Source: Escherichia coli (GTDB lineage: Bacteria; Pseudomonadota; Gammaproteobacteria; Enterobacterales; Enterobacteriaceae). From it: DNA of 64,000 nucleotides. The stretch is taken from NCBI RefSeq assembly GCF_003334305.1, contig NZ_QOWS01000002.1. One strand, written 5' to 3'. The notes under the pieces are model-generated. The model did not search any database and was not told the DNA's origin. It saw only the letters and a program-made list of their open reading frames with translations. The position numbers were made by a program, and so were the translations under genes. Positions 2,667 to 47,530 of this stretch are shown piece after piece. The number at the start of each line of letters is the position of its first letter. Positions within the stretch are counted from its first letter, which is position 1.

Positions 2667-3719
2667 ATGCCAGTGTTACACAACCGCATTTCCAACGACG
2701 CGCTAAAAGCCAAAATGTTGGCTGAGAGCGAACCGCGAACCACCATTTCGTTTTACAAGTATTTCCACATCGCCGATCCTAAGGCGACCCGTGACGCTTT
2801 ATATCAGCTGTTTACCGCGCTGAATGTTTTTGGGCGAGTGTATCTGGCGCATGAGGGCATTAACGCGCAAATCAGCGTACCTGCGAGCAATGTTGAAACA
2901 TTTCGCGCGCAGCTCTATGCCTTCGACCCGGCTTTAGAGGGTTTACGCCTGAATATCGCGTTGGATGATGACGGGAAATCCTTCTGGGTACTGCGCATGA
3001 AGGTACGCGATCGCATTGTTGCCGACGGTATTGACGATCCTCACTTTGATGCCAGCAATGTTGGTGAGTATCTGCAAGCGGCGGAAGTGAACGCCATGCT
3101 TGACGATCCCGATGCACTATTTATCGACATGCGTAACCACTATGAGTATGAAGTGGGGCACTTTGAAAACGCGCTCGAAATTCCGGCAGATACCTTCCGT
3201 GAGCAGCTGCCAAAAGCAGTCGAGATGATGCAGGCACATAAAGATAAAAAAATCGTCATGTACTGCACCGGCGGCATTCGTTGTGAAAAGGCCAGTGCCT
3301 GGATGAAACATAACGGATTCAACAAAGTCTGGCATATCGAGGGCGGAATTATTGAATACGCCCGTAAGGCGCGCGAGCAGGGCTTGCCGGTGCGTTTTAT
3401 TGGCAAAAATTTTGTTTTTGACGAGCGGATGGGCGAACGTATATCGGATGAGATTATCGCGCATTGCCACCAGTGCGGCGCGCCGTGCGACAGCCATACC
3501 AACTGTAAAAATGATGGCTGCCACCTGCTGTTTATTCAGTGTCCAGTATGTGCGGAAAAATACAAAGGTTGTTGTAGTGAGATTTGCTGCGAAGAAAGCG
3601 CGTTACCGCCAGAAGAACAGCGACGCCGTCGGGCAGGACGTGAAAATGGCAATAAGATCTTTAATAAGTCTCGTGGACGTCTGAATACAACACTGGGCAT
3701 TCCTGATCCAACGGAATAA
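2667..3719 (+). CDS. trhO: Rhodanese-domain tRNA U34 hydroxylase (YceA/TrhO)
   Basis: ORF trimmed to [17 protein letters not shown]... (350 aa); rhodanese active-site motif CTGGIRC present; C-terminal Cys-rich tail. Confidence 0.9.
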
Positions 3720-8470: not shown

Positions 8471-8482
8471 TAATCTCTATGC

Positions 8483-8509
8483 TCCGGCTGAAGGGATGTT
8501 TTTGCCGGA
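8483..8509 (-). promoter_or_regulatory. pyrC leader hairpin able to sequester the Shine-Dalgarno (pyrimidine-responsive start-site regulation)
   Basis: Reverse strand UCCGGC...GCCGGA inverted repeat, whose 3' arm overlaps the GGAG Shine-Dalgarno just upstream of the pyrC ATG. Confidence 0.55.
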
Positions 8510-8521
8510 CACAAAGGATAA

Positions 8522-9269: not shown

Positions 9270-9917
9270 TTAAATCGCCATTGATGATAACAAATTGATT
9301 TGTGTCTGTTTCGCCATATTATCGCGGTAATCAGCAACGCGGCTTGGCCAGTTGATTCCGGCTACCAGCGTCAGATTACGCAGTAGCGGAAATAGCTGAA
9401 TATCATCTTCCGAAAGTTCGCCATTCACGGCGTTCGGTTTGACGATCAGTTTGTCCAGCGCACGCAAATCATCGCTGATATTCTTAATCAGACCGTCAGA
9501 GTGGGCCAGCAGGTCGGCTAAATTACCCGCGCTGGCCTCTTTCTTGTCGACGAAATATTTGCGCGCGGCGGGAGTAGAAAACTCATCAAATGCCGATTTG
9601 GCAAAACGCGGCAACAGCAGTTTGTTTGCGTAGCCATTGACCTTGCGCAGCCACTCTTCAATGGCAGGGGAACGTTTGCCGGTCAGTAACGGTTTGCCGT
9701 CGAGTTTATCGACATAGTGAACGATGTCCATGCTTTCTGGCATATAGCGGCTGTCATCTTTTTGCAGAATGGGAACCTGTTTTTGACCGACCATCCGGGT
9801 GGGTGTTTCTGCGTCGTCGTTGAGCAGAACATGTAATTCGACGGGGATATTTTTCAGGCCGAAAATCATGCGGGCTTTGAGGCAGTAAGGGCAGTGATCG
9901 TAAATGTATAGCTTCAC
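9270..9917 (-). CDS. grxB: Glutaredoxin 2
   Basis: 215 aa; MKLYIYDHCPYCLKARMIFGLK with a CPYC active site. Confidence 0.95.
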   Translation of the reverse strand: MKLYIYDHCPYCLKARMIFGLKNIPVELHVLLNDDAETPTRMVGQKQVPILQKDDSRYMPESMDIVHYVDKLDGKPLLTGKRSPAIEEWLRKVNGYANKLLLPRFAKSAFDEFSTPAARKYFVDKKEASAGNLADLLAHSDGLIKNISDDLRALDKLIVKPNAVNGELSEDDIQLFPLLRNLTLVAGINWPSRVADYRDNMAKQTQINLLSSMAI

Positions 9918-42636: not shown

Positions 42637-43434
42637 ATGTTTTTAGTCGACTCACACTGCCATCTCGATGGTCTGGATTATGAATCTTTGCATAAGGACG
42701 TGGATGACGTTCTGGCGAAAGCCGCCGCACGCGATGTGAAATTTTGTCTGGCAGTCGCCACAACGTTACCGGGTTATTTACACATGCGGGATCTGGTAGG
42801 CGAACGTGACAACGTCGTATTTTCTTGTGGCGTGCATCCACTCAACCAGAATGATCCCTACGATGTAGAAGATTTACGCCGTCTGGCGGCAGAAGAGGGT
42901 GTGGTTGCGCTGGGTGAAACTGGGCTGGATTATTATTACACGCCGGAAACTAAAGTACGTCAGCAAGAGTCCTTCATCCATCATATCCAGATTGGTCGTG
43001 AACTGAACAAGCCGGTTATCGTCCATACCCGTGACGCCCGCGCCGATACGCTGGCAATTCTGCGCGAAGAAAAAGTGACGGATTGCGGTGGCGTACTACA
43101 CTGTTTTACAGAGGACAGAGAAACGGCGGGTAAATTACTGGATCTCGGATTTTACATCTCCTTTTCCGGCATTGTGACCTTCCGTAATGCGGAGCAACTG
43201 CGCGATGCTGCGCGTTATGTCCCCCTGGATCGATTACTGGTGGAAACTGACTCACCTTACCTTGCGCCGGTACCGCATCGAGGAAAAGAGAATCAACCTG
43301 CGATGGTTCGTGACGTTGCAGAATACATGGCTGTGTTGAAAGGTGTTGCCGTTGAAGAACTGGCGCAGGTAACCACCGATAACTTCGCCCGTCTGTTTCA
43401 CATCGACGCTTCCCGCCTTCAATCCATCCGTTGA
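42637..43434 (+). CDS. ycfH: TatD-family metal-dependent nuclease YcfH
   Basis: ORF trimmed to [18 protein letters not shown]... (265 aa), TatD HxH motif. Confidence 0.92.
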
Positions 43435-43608
43435 ATGAGTTTTTTTAAAGCTCGTAATTAATGGCTAAAACGAGTAAAGTTCACCGCCGAAAATTGGGCG
43501 GTGAATAACCGCGTTTGAAATATTGTGACATATGTTTTGTCAAAATGTGCAACTTCTCCAATGATCTGAAGTTGAAACGTGATAGCCGTCAAACAAATTG
43601 GCACTGAA

Positions 43609-43634
43609 TTATTTTACTCTGTGTAATAAATAAA
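43609..43634 (+). promoter_or_regulatory. Putative Mlc operator in the ptsG promoter
   Basis: AT-rich dyad TTATTTTACTCTGTGTAATAAATAAA upstream of ptsG; assignment from memory of ptsG regulation, exact site not verified. Confidence 0.35.
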
Positions 43635-43689
43635 GGGCGCTTAGATGCCCTGTACACGGCGAGGCTCTCCCCCCTTGCCACGCGTGAGA

Positions 43690-43731
43690 ACGTAAAAAAA
43701 GCACCCATACTCAGGAGCACTCTCAATTATG
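43690..43731 (+). promoter_or_regulatory. ptsG 5' UTR / ribosome-binding region, the known SgrS base-pairing target
   Basis: AAAGCACCCATACTCAGGAGCACTCTCAATTATG immediately 5' of and including the ptsG start codon. Confidence 0.5.
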
Positions 43732-45162
43732 TTTAAGAATGCATTTGCTAACCTGCAAAAGGTCGGTAAATCGCTGATGCTGCCGGTATCCGTACTGCCT
43801 ATCGCAGGTATTCTGCTGGGCGTCGGTTCCGCGAATTTCAGCTGGCTGCCCGCCGTTGTATCGCATGTTATGGCAGAAGCAGGCGGTTCCGTCTTTGCAA
43901 ACATGCCACTGATTTTTGCGATCGGTGTCGCCCTCGGCTTTACCAATAACGATGGCGTATCCGCGCTGGCCGCAGTTGTTGCCTATGGCATCATGGTTAA
44001 AACCATGGCCGTGGTTGCGCCACTGGTACTGCATTTACCTGCTGAAGAAATCGCCTCTAAACACCTGGCGGATACTGGCGTACTCGGAGGGATTATCTCC
44101 GGTGCGATCGCAGCGTACATGTTTAACCGTTTCTACCGTATTAAGCTGCCTGAGTATCTTGGCTTCTTTGCCGGTAAACGCTTTGTGCCGATCATTTCTG
44201 GCCTGGCTGCCATCTTTACTGGCGTTGTGCTGTCCTTCATTTGGCCGCCGATTGGTTCTGCAATCCAGACCTTCTCTCAGTGGGCTGCTTACCAGAACCC
44301 GGTAGTTGCGTTTGGCATTTACGGTTTCATCGAACGTTGCCTGGTACCGTTTGGTCTGCACCACATCTGGAACGTACCTTTCCAGATGCAGATTGGTGAA
44401 TACACCAACGCAGCAGGTCAGGTTTTCCACGGCGACATTCCGCGTTATATGGCGGGTGACCCGACTGCGGGTAAACTGTCTGGTGGCTTCCTGTTCAAAA
44501 TGTACGGTCTGCCAGCTGCCGCAATTGCTATCTGGCACTCTGCTAAACCAGAAAACCGCGCGAAAGTGGGCGGTATTATGATTTCCGCGGCGCTGACCTC
44601 GTTCCTGACCGGTATCACCGAGCCGATCGAGTTCTCCTTCATGTTCGTTGCGCCGATCCTGTACATCATCCACGCGATTCTGGCAGGCCTGGCATTCCCA
44701 ATCTGTATTCTTCTGGGGATGCGTGACGGTACGTCGTTCTCGCACGGTCTGATCGACTTCATCGTTCTGTCTGGTAACAGCAGCAAACTGTGGCTGTTCC
44801 CGATCGTCGGTATCGGTTATGCGATTGTTTACTACACCATCTTCCGCGTGCTGATTAAAGCACTGGATCTGAAAACGCCGGGTCGTGAAGACGCGACTGA
44901 AGATGCAAAAGCGACAGGTACCAGCGAAATGGCACCGGCTCTGGTTGCTGCATTTGGTGGTAAAGAAAACATTACTAACCTCGACGCATGTATTACCCGT
45001 CTGCGCGTCAGCGTTGCTGATGTGTCTAAAGTGGATCAGGCCGGCCTGAAGAAACTGGGCGCAGCGGGCGTAGTGGTTGCTGGTTCTGGTGTTCAGGCGA
45101 TTTTCGGTACTAAATCCGATAACCTGAAAACCGAGATGGATGAGTACATCCGTAACCACTAA
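43729..45162 (+). CDS. ptsG: PTS glucose-specific EIICB component
   Basis: 477 aa; [33 protein letters not shown]; C-terminal EIIB domain with ITRLRV. Confidence 0.97.
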
Positions 45163-45221: not shown

Positions 45222-47411
45222 TCAGAATTGATACGTGCTGGTAATGCTGAAATTACGCGGTGTGCCGTAGACGATAGAACCTTCCACGTTGGTATCGTAG
45301 GTTTTGTCGAACAGGTTATTGACGTTCCCCTGTAACGAGAAGTTTTTCGTCACCTGGTAGCGGGTGAAGAGATCCACCAGCGCGTAGCTACCTTGCTCGG
45401 CGCGGAAGGTGCCATACGGTGTCACGGTGTCGGTATACACGCGATTTTGCCAGTTAACACCACCGCCGACTGTCAACTCTGGCATGACAGGCAACCGATA
45501 GCTGGTGAACATTTTAACCGTGGTGCGTGGCAGATTAGGATTAACGGCGTTTCCTTCGTTATCCTCTGCAATATAGCGCGTTGCGCCAAATGTCAGCTGC
45601 CAGTTGTCGGTAATTGCGCCGTTGAGTTCAAATTCCACCCCTTTACTGACTGTCCCATCCACCGCTTTATAGGCGGTTTCGCCGTTGCTGCCGGGGATAG
45701 GTGTACCGGTGGACTGAGCGACATTATCCTGCTCAATACGGAAGATGGCTAATGTGGTGGTCAGACGGCTATTCATCCAGTCCGATTTCAGACCCAGCTC
45801 GTAGTTGTTACCGGTGATTGGAGCCAGATATTTGCCTGAACTGTCACGATCATTTTGCGGCTGGAAAATAGAGGTATAGCTGGCGTAGGTCGACCAGTTG
45901 TCATTGATGTCAAACACCAGACCAGCGTAAGGCGTGGTGTGGTTTTTCTCCATGCTGTAAGTCAGCGTATCAACCCGCCAGTTGGTATAACGTGCGCCGA
46001 GGATCAGATGCAGCGGATCGGCAAGGGTGACACGAGTGGCAGCATATAACGATTTCATATGTGTGGTATCGTCCTGCGCCAGGCTCTGTGGTGACCAGTC
46101 GGTTTGTGGGAAATTGCCATTAAAGTTGTAGAAACTGCCAATTTCATCCGGGAAGATGTTGGCCCATGAACTGAAGTAACGATTGTTTTGTTTGCTGTAA
46201 CTGCCACCAAACATTAGATTGTGCTGACGACCAAACAATTCATAACTACCGTCAGCGAACAAATCCAGCGCATCAACTTTACGTTTGCCACTGTTCCAAC
46301 CGGTGCCGCCGACATAATCAAAGCCAGGTCCATAATTACTGTATGGCCCAACCAGCATACCATCCGCTTTGTTTACATAGGCATCGACATACATCATTTT
46401 GCTGTCAAATTCGACTTCAGAGTGGGTGGCATTCAGCGTCGCTTGCCAGGTATCAGCAAACCGCTGCTTCAGGGTCATAAAGACCTTGTTGATCTCTTTA
46501 TCGTTGTACGCCCAGTCAGGTGCGGTACTGCGTGCACGATCGTAACTGTTGCTGCTGCCATCAGTATTCCAGCGCGGTAAACCGCCCCAGGTAGGGCTAT
46601 TAACATCAATGCGCTGATATTCGTAACCGGCTGAAAGCGTCGTAAGATCGCCTAAATCAGCATCGACAATGCCGGAGAAGAAGGTCTTTTCACTGTTGTA
46701 GCGGTCCAGCCATGAGTCGTTATTCTGGTAGCCGCCGACAATTCGCGCGCGGATTTTACCGTCTTCGGTGAGTGGGCTTTGTAAATCCGCCACATACCGT
46801 TCTTTGTTCCAGCTACCGTATTCCGCCGAGACATCGCCTTTAAATTCACGACTGGTCGCGTGTTTTCGAACCATATTAATTGCCGCAGATGGATTACCCG
46901 TCCCGGTCATGAGTCCTGTCGCGCCACGCACTACTTCTACGCGTTCAAAGAGTGCCATATCAGAAAGTGCGTCGCCCAGATTCCAGCGCGATTCAAAATA
47001 GGTGGGGATACCATCAACCATATAGTTATCGATCTGGAATCCGCGGGAATAATAAAGAGCACGATCGGAATCCGCCTGACTTTTGCTGATCCCCAGCGTG
47101 TTTTCCATCACTTCGCCCAGCGTTTGTAACTGCTGATCTTCCATCCGCTGCTGGCTAACAATAGTGACCGACTGAGGAATATCACGTTGAGTCATCTGCA
47201 TTTTGGTACCCGCAGAGGTAGACGTTACGCTGTAATCATTTTCGCCATCATCTGGAGCTGTGGCTGAACCCTCAACAATCACCGTTTCTTCAGTGGCTGG
47301 TGCAGCAAAAGCGGCAGAAGGTAATAGTGCCAGTGCTATGCAACCGGCAAGTAGTGATGGTTTGGTGCTGGCTTGATATTGATTATCCCTGTTAAATTGT
47401 GTTGAAAGCAT
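45222..47411 (-). CDS. fhuE: TonB-dependent ferric coprogen/rhodotorulic acid receptor
   Basis: 729 aa; signal peptide, TonB-box region and C-terminal aromatic residue (...TSTYQF). Confidence 0.95.
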   Translation of the reverse strand: MLSTQFNRDNQYQASTKPSLLAGCIALALLPSAAFAAPATEETVIVEGSATAPDDGENDYSVTSTSAGTKMQMTQRDIPQSVTIVSQQRMEDQQLQTLGEVMENTLGISKSQADSDRALYYSRGFQIDNYMVDGIPTYFESRWNLGDALSDMALFERVEVVRGATGLMTGTGNPSAAINMVRKHATSREFKGDVSAEYGSWNKERYVADLQSPLTEDGKIRARIVGGYQNNDSWLDRYNSEKTFFSGIVDADLGDLTTLSAGYEYQRIDVNSPTWGGLPRWNTDGSSNSYDRARSTAPDWAYNDKEINKVFMTLKQRFADTWQATLNATHSEVEFDSKMMYVDAYVNKADGMLVGPYSNYGPGFDYVGGTGWNSGKRKVDALDLFADGSYELFGRQHNLMFGGSYSKQNNRYFSSWANIFPDEIGSFYNFNGNFPQTDWSPQSLAQDDTTHMKSLYAATRVTLADPLHLILGARYTNWRVDTLTYSMEKNHTTPYAGLVFDINDNWSTYASYTSIFQPQNDRDSSGKYLAPITGNNYELGLKSDWMNSRLTTTLAIFRIEQDNVAQSTGTPIPGSNGETAYKAVDGTVSKGVEFELNGAITDNWQLTFGATRYIAEDNEGNAVNPNLPRTTVKMFTSYRLPVMPELTVGGGVNWQNRVYTDTVTPYGTFRAEQGSYALVDLFTRYQVTKNFSLQGNVNNLFDKTYDTNVEGSIVYGTPRNFSITSTYQF

Positions 47412-47489
47412 TTGAAATCTCTTGGTTTATGTTGTCGTCAGGCTCATGCCGGAGGAGGGTGATGAGCGGTTATATTTAGTGTGCGAATA

Positions 47490-47530
47490 ATTTTGTGTGT
47501 AAATGCAAATGAGAAATATACGCATTCATA
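47490..47530 (-). promoter_or_regulatory. Putative Fur box region upstream of fhuE
   Basis: AT-rich imperfect dyad (AAATGCAAATGAGAAATATACGCATTCATATTT) in the fhuE upstream region; loose match to GATAAT-type hexamer repeats. Confidence 0.3.

Follow-up and report, generated by a model that had tools for sequence, protein, structure and literature searches.

The closest described system to the sequence studied here is the ptsG promoter/operator region of Escherichia coli K-12, which comprises the promoter P1, a CRP site and two Mlc operators (Plumbridge 1998; Kimata et al. 1998; both through citations in PMC8846999 and PMC1874608). PMC8846999 cites earlier reports in which Mlc, CRP, Fis and ArcA act on this promoter; in the ChIP-qPCR of that study, neither Mlc nor Fis was significantly enriched at the ptsG promoter under the conditions used. 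The Mlc site is described as a quasi-palindrome of 23 bp in which TT at -6 and -5 and AA at +5 and +6 are invariant, with AT-rich positions ±7 to ±11 and A or T at ±11 (PMC4288165, PMC1874608). Mlc is released by binding dephosphorylated EIICB-Glc, and the two sites of two-site promoters are stated to lie ~98 nt apart (PMC1874608). The operators of NagC, the paralogous ROK-family repressor of the nag regulon, share the 23-bp quasi-palindrome, the TT/AA at ±5 and ±6 and the occurrence of paired sites. However, high-affinity NagC sites carry G/C at ±11, whereas T occupies both -11 and +11 in the two ptsG sites, as is characteristic of Mlc (PMC4288165).

The described counterpart at the mRNA level is the SgrS-ptsG interaction (Vanderpool & Gottesman 2004; Kawamoto et al. 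2006; Rice & Vanderpool 2011, PMC3089445; Wadler & Vanderpool 2009, PMC2760806). Lead acetate footprints cover G76-A78, A82-G89 and C92-C95 of ptsG and G168-U181 of SgrS, and regulation is lost with the SgrS changes G176C and G178C but regained when ptsG carries compensatory mutations (PMC3089445, PMC2760806). Pairing over 14 nt that include the Shine-Dalgarno sequence is reported to suffice (PMC5480111). In vivo, a sequence identical to the present one has been reported to undergo translational repression that requires Hfq and decay that requires RNase E (PMC3089445, PMC2760806, PMC5480111).

The ycfH-ptsG region and its identity with K-12

In the window, the whole 64-kb stretch of E. coli DNA that was analysed, ycfH is followed by ptsG. 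According to the list of open reading frames (ORFs), the ycfH stop codon occupies 43432-43434 and the ptsG ATG starts at 43729, so that the intergenic region is 294 bp long, exactly the length of the upstream region given in a preliminary description of this DNA.

43435..43728, + strand: ycfH-ptsG intergenic region with the ptsG promoters, operators and leader (ORF list, colinearity with MG1655)
43729..45162, + strand: ptsG coding sequence, EIICB-Glc, 477 aa (ORF and RefSeq annotation)

The window is colinear with MG1655, with base-for-base numbering, from MG1655 position 1114141 onward, and the gene neighbours are the same (ycfH upstream, fhuE downstream). The ptsG upstream region is identical to that of MG1655 at 296 of 297 bases, and all the elements named below lie within the identical part. 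The sole intergenic difference is position 43511, G here and A in K-12. This polymorphism falls in poorly conserved spacer between a terminator-like hairpin and the CRP site, outside every named element. Compared with the K-12 region, which has P1, the CRP site and two Mlc operators in the same sequence and with the same neighbours, there is no functional difference, and the operators conform to the Mlc rule as published.

In a search with 497 bp around the region as query, all but one of 5426 complete E. coli genomes (5425) gave a single match, annotated ycfH / ptsG. Among these matches, five fall on records labelled plasmid, and a single complete genome lacks a match; these may represent mislabelled replicons and a strain with a deletion of the ptsG region, respectively.

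We are almost certain that the region comprises the regulatory sequences and the 5' leader of E. coli ptsG, through which the main glucose transporter is controlled both transcriptionally and post-transcriptionally. Our own data show that the sequence matches the characterised one, and they cover the sites, how far these stand out statistically, the SgrS duplex and the conservation; protein binding, regulation in vivo and the sequestration of Mlc are taken from the literature (PMC8846999, PMC1874608, PMC4288165, PMC3089445, PMC2760806, PMC5480111).

Promoters, CRP site and Mlc operators

The elements of the transcriptional control region are as follows.

43440..43462, no strand assigned: distal Mlc operator TTTTTTTAAAGCTCGTAATTAAT, centre 43451, -175 from P1 +1 (rule, rank 1 with a position weight matrix, PWM)
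43575..43596, no strand assigned: predicted CRP site, core CGTGA-N6-TCAAA at 43578-43593, centre 43585.5, -40.5 from P1 +1 (sequence, conservation)
43609..43631, no strand assigned: proximal Mlc operator TTATTTTACTCTGTGTAATAAAT, centre 43620 (-6), P1 -17 to +6 (rule, PWM rank 2, near-invariance)
43626..43728, + strand: 5' UTR from P1, 103 nt, +1 set at 43626 (published residue numbering, PMC3089445)
43634..43651, + strand: first stem-loop of the 5' leader, GGGCGC/GCCCU, +9 to +26 (minimum free energy, MFE, fold)

The P1 start at 43626 is a predicted position derived from the published numbering, with which five of the six published end-residues agree; the sixth, 'C92', falls on a G, the C being at +93. 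The predicted CRP site matches TGTGA-N6-TCACA at eight of ten positions and its centre at -40.5 corresponds to a class II position, where cAMP-CRP would be required for transcription from P1. The mapping of P1 and P2 and the footprints follow secondary citations; the minor promoter P2 lies ~140 bp upstream of P1, near the distal Mlc operator, which presumably overlaps it. The position of this second promoter was reportedly given by Plumbridge in 1998. The leader stem-loop at 43634-43651, whose columns are 60-80% conserved, might protect the 5' end.

Other candidate elements of the region were discarded. A 16-codon upstream ORF MPCTRRGSPPLPRVRT on the + strand, running from ATG 43645 to TAA 43695 and with AAGGG 8 nt before its ATG, was rejected as a chance ORF because most relatives lack it, another E. 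coli lineage (L059) among them; only Escherichia and a few relatives retain it. The promoter-like TTGTCA-17-AATGAT at 43537-43565 is in the stretch of spacer with the lowest conservation and was not taken as a promoter since such matches are as numerous as expected from shuffles (one found, 0.7 expected). Minus-strand terminator-like matches at 43651-43634 and 43724-43697 were set aside because they are the reverse complements of leader hairpins and no minus-strand gene runs into them.

Both ptsG operators conform to the Mlc rule, with TT-N9-AA, T at -11 and +11 and A/T at 10 of 10 positions at ±7 to ±11, and the proximal one is symmetrical at seven of 11 dyad positions. The strict form of the rule, with 10/10 A/T flanks, selects three sites in the 64 kb, two of them in these 294 bp, against 0.5 ± 0.8 in first-order Markov sequences of the same composition. 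A symmetrised PWM was also built from only four training sites, chosen by the rule in MG1655 promoters reported to be Mlc-controlled (ptsH, manX, malT and mlc) and including no ptsG site. Over 63,978 positions of the window, it placed the distal operator first (18.6 bits) and the proximal one second (16.9 bits, with the register one base to the left), the PWM scan proposed in the preliminary description thus recovering both. That description had mentioned a single AT-rich dyad resembling an Mlc operator: the resemblance holds by rule and by PWM, whereas the number does not, since two dyads were found in addition to the CRP site.

The distal operator is located just past the ycfH stop codon, 169 bp upstream of the proximal one, which overlaps the -10 region and start site of P1. 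Given that the proximal operator spans -17 to +6, Mlc bound there would exclude RNA polymerase and thereby block P1. During glucose transport, dephosphorylated EIICB-Glc, the ptsG product itself, would hold Mlc at the membrane and the repression would be lifted. A rule-matching site ~98 bp from either ptsG operator was sought and none was found; the canonical pair is 169 bp apart, unlike the statement in PMC1874608.

For conservation, a degenerate pattern of the PtsG N-terminus was used to gather 120 loci of various species, three of them from Vibrio and most of the others from Enterobacterales, and counts were made on the 109 loci with at least 300 nt upstream. In the alignment, columns at least 95% identical to E. 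coli form three islands, namely the CRP site, the proximal Mlc operator and the leader sequence ACTCAGGAG; the distal operator is 70-90% identical to E. coli, and the rest of the spacer 10-50%. The proximal operator is nearly invariant and was found in 106 of 109 species, in 103 of which the CRP centre lies exactly 34.5 bp upstream of the operator centre. A rule-matching distal operator is present 150-190 bp upstream of the proximal one in 78 of 109 species, and the spacing is 167-170 bp in 71 of these 78.

Two further Mlc-like sequences occur in the window. TTATATTTAGTGTGCGAATAATT at 47470-47492 (centre 47481), ~70 bp upstream of the start of fhuE (- strand, 45222-47411), is the only other match to the strict Mlc/NagC rule in 64 kb and has PWM rank 6; it could be a chance match in an AT-rich, Fur-controlled promoter. 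ATATTTTTCAGGCCGAAAATCAT at 9847-9869 (centre 9858), within the coding sequence of grxB (- strand), near the 5' end of this gene and upstream of mdtH, ranks third with the non-ptsG Mlc matrix (16.8 bits), probably by chance.

These two sequences, together with the looseness of the TT-N9-AA rule and the AT-richness of intergenic DNA, lend some weight to the idea that the ptsG dyads are themselves AT-rich promoter sequence, such as UP elements or sites of Fis or other nucleoid proteins, matching a loose rule by chance; the same idea would accommodate the lack of Mlc ChIP-qPCR enrichment at ptsG and the Fis and ArcA sites reported in the same region (PMC8846999). Chance matching would, however, have to account for the two dyads being the top two of 63,978 scores with a matrix free of ptsG sites, and for the near-invariance of the proximal site in 106 of 109 species, which extends to its non-AT centre ACTCTGYGT and is accompanied by a fixed distance of 34.5 bp to the CRP site. 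The sequence is moreover identical to the MG1655 operator that serves as the standard Mlc target (ptsG-lacZ) in PMC4288165. We consider a chance origin of the dyads very improbable and regard them as Mlc operators.

The hairpin between the operators and possible DNA looping

The DNA between the two Mlc operators contains one further structured element.

43479..43506, + strand: 10-bp stem-loop TTCACCGCCG/CGGCGGTGAA with an 8-nt loop, terminator-like, downstream of ycfH (fold, structure conservation)

This hairpin has a folding energy of -18.8 kcal/mol (z = -5.2), and in most of the 72 distinct relatives with both operators, a hairpin of different stem sequence occupies that offset. Pairs were counted on an explicitly stated helix in 56 ungapped anchored sequences. 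The paired fraction of the cells is 82% in register and falls to 40-57% on sliding the 3' arm, and double-change cells number 43 in register against 17-23 slid; compensatory examples include a change from A-T to T-A at one pair and from G-C to C-G at another. RNAalifold returned no structure for the ungapped hairpin alignment, and an Rfam search of the region gave nothing meaningful, a single match to a viral element on the hairpin having E = 0.78. A run of at least four T follows the stem in 28 of the 56 relatives. In E. coli the tail after the stem is AAUAACCGCGUUUG, a degenerate T-run, and the terminator scan made no call there. The hairpin is probably the ycfH terminator, its T-run being degenerate in E. 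coli.

A conserved GTAAAGT, containing a TAAAGT-like -10 element, stands directly before the hairpin at 43474-43480. Judging from its sequence, it could be the -10 element of the minor ptsG promoter P2.

The operator spacing of 167-170 bp corresponds to about 16 helical turns of poorly conserved DNA, and this spacer always contains the structure-conserved, terminator-like hairpin of ycfH. We tentatively propose, as a possibility we ourselves rate as unlikely, that an Mlc tetramer binds the two operators at once, the segment with P2, the terminator and the CRP site forming a loop, as with NagC at nagE-nagB, and that P2 starts inside the 5' arm of the hairpin. With such a start, P2 transcripts would escape the terminator that stops read-through from ycfH. 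No statement of either the Mlc looping or the P2-in-hairpin idea was found in the literature searched, which did not extend to the primary promoter papers, and these may contain either.

The SgrS pairing site and its use as a control

The third conserved island of the region belongs to the leader of the ptsG mRNA, next to the start codon.

43701..43720, + strand: SgrS pairing region, ptsG +76 to +95, GCACCCATACTCAGGAGCAC (top interaction in the window, pairs with SgrS 168-187)
43707-43714, + strand: proven core ATACTCAG within the pairing region (SgrS complementarity, published mutations)
43713..43717, + strand: Shine-Dalgarno sequence AGGAG within the SgrS duplex, separated from the ATG by 11 nt (sequence, at least 95% conserved)

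The SgrS gene itself is not in the window, where Rfam gave no SgrS match. The only matches at the gathering threshold were the RNase E 5' UTR (rne leader; 30252-30588, - strand), the SraB sRNA (32449-32617, + strand) and the PyrC leader (8471-8520, - strand), none of them unexpected in this stretch of the E. coli chromosome. In MG1655 the SgrS gene occupies 77367-77593 (227 nt), ~1.08 Mb from ptsG, and the full-length RNA from this strain was used to search the whole 64 kb on both strands. Plain duplexfold, applied to the leader with the complete SgrS, produced a meaningless 200-nt duplex. A window scan by hybrid energy only, in which many GC- or GU-rich sites came out above ptsG, down to -38 kcal/mol, was uninformative for that reason, and accessibility was therefore added. 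This was done with an IntaRNA-like script of our own (not IntaRNA or CopraRNA) that combines ViennaRNA duplexfold with plfold accessibilities in 30-nt windows moved in steps of 5, the opening energies of both partners, calculated from local unpaired probabilities, being added to the hybrid energy.

The pairing of ptsG 43701-43720 with SgrS nucleotides 168-187 ranks first in the window, with a hybrid energy of -27.8 and a total of -18.97 kcal/mol. When only the leader is considered, the total amounts to -18.3 kcal/mol, against -7.5 ± 1.9 (sd) in 300 dinucleotide-preserving shuffles, none of which reaches it (z = -5.6). The runner-up, at 3217-3236 on the + strand with SgrS 156-176 (total -16.75 kcal/mol), is deep in the coding sequence of trhO and does not correspond to a reported target.

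With +1 at 43626, ptsG +82 to +89 (A82-G89) reads AUACUCAG at 43707-43714 and G76-A78 reads GCA; on the other partner, C174-U181 reads CUGAGUAU with G176 and G178 in place. The ends of the predicted duplex (+76 to +95; SgrS 168-187) agree with the published footprints and with the G176/G178 core, and the MFE fold of the leader is predicted to place the core CAUACUCA in a hairpin loop. Compared with the known SgrS-ptsG system, the target sequence is identical, the duplex coincides and no difference was noted, the sRNA gene simply being outside the window.

The preliminary description had located the SgrS target at the ptsG ribosome-binding region and had named a predicted duplex over the ribosome-binding site as the decisive check. 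The IntaRNA-like scan found this duplex, as the best SgrS interaction sits on the ptsG Shine-Dalgarno region, and the claim is borne out. The 31-mer AAAGCACCCATACTCAGGAGCACTCTCAATT quoted there as the target occurs once in the window, at 43698-43728; it does contain the pairing site, but is longer than both the pairing stretch (43701-43720) and the proven core (43707-43714).

Among the 109 species, ACTCAGGAG is found in 102 and is absent in the three Vibrio loci, so that the target site, which is what was compared, is conserved in the enteric bacteria, the group from which homologues of SgrS have been described. Several leaders (L058 and L090, from Citrobacter youngae and a relative, and L017, L035, L047 and L113) have a length of 167-226 nt, with 60-120 additional nt just upstream of an intact SgrS site; for some Citrobacter-group leaders the insert measures ~80-120 nt. 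In C. youngae and its relative it forms a long, imperfect palindrome similar to ERIC elements, which are intergenic repeat units.

The conservation of ACTCAGGAG might be ascribed to the needs of translation initiation only, that is, to the Shine-Dalgarno sequence and its context, with an incidental complementarity to SgrS. AGGAG is indeed the consensus Shine-Dalgarno sequence and would be conserved regardless of SgrS, and by hybrid energy alone many stronger duplexes, down to -38 kcal/mol, exist elsewhere in the window. The conservation nevertheless extends to the ACTC located 5' of the Shine-Dalgarno sequence, which the ribosome does not need and which is at least 90% conserved in Enterobacterales (three of its four bases at least 95%) and replaced in the three Vibrio loci. 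Once accessibility is considered, the ptsG site is first in the window and uses the single-stranded nucleotides 168-187 of SgrS, and the pairing has been proven by published compensatory mutations (PMC3089445, PMC2760806). An incidental complementarity thus appears to us even less credible than a chance origin of the Mlc dyads, close to untenable, and we retain ACTCAGGAG as part of the SgrS target. Under sugar-phosphate stress, the Hfq-dependent SgrS would be made from its gene ~1.08 Mb away, and its nucleotides 168-187 would pair with +76 to +95 of the leader, covering the Shine-Dalgarno AGGAG. The duplex would block translation initiation and lead to RNase E-dependent decay of the ptsG mRNA.

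The control of ptsG by Mlc, CRP and SgrS is textbook knowledge, and the feature is already known in full, with nothing new in it. Its interest here is that of the positive control suggested at the outset, and in this use it performs well, because the sRNA scan recovers the SgrS site as the top match of the window, provided that the SgrS sequence is brought from outside. The region is a clean internal positive control for scans of sRNA targets and operators over the 64-kb window, and the recovery of both operators as the top two hits by a matrix of only four sites calibrates the trust to be placed in such scans on lesser-known DNA.
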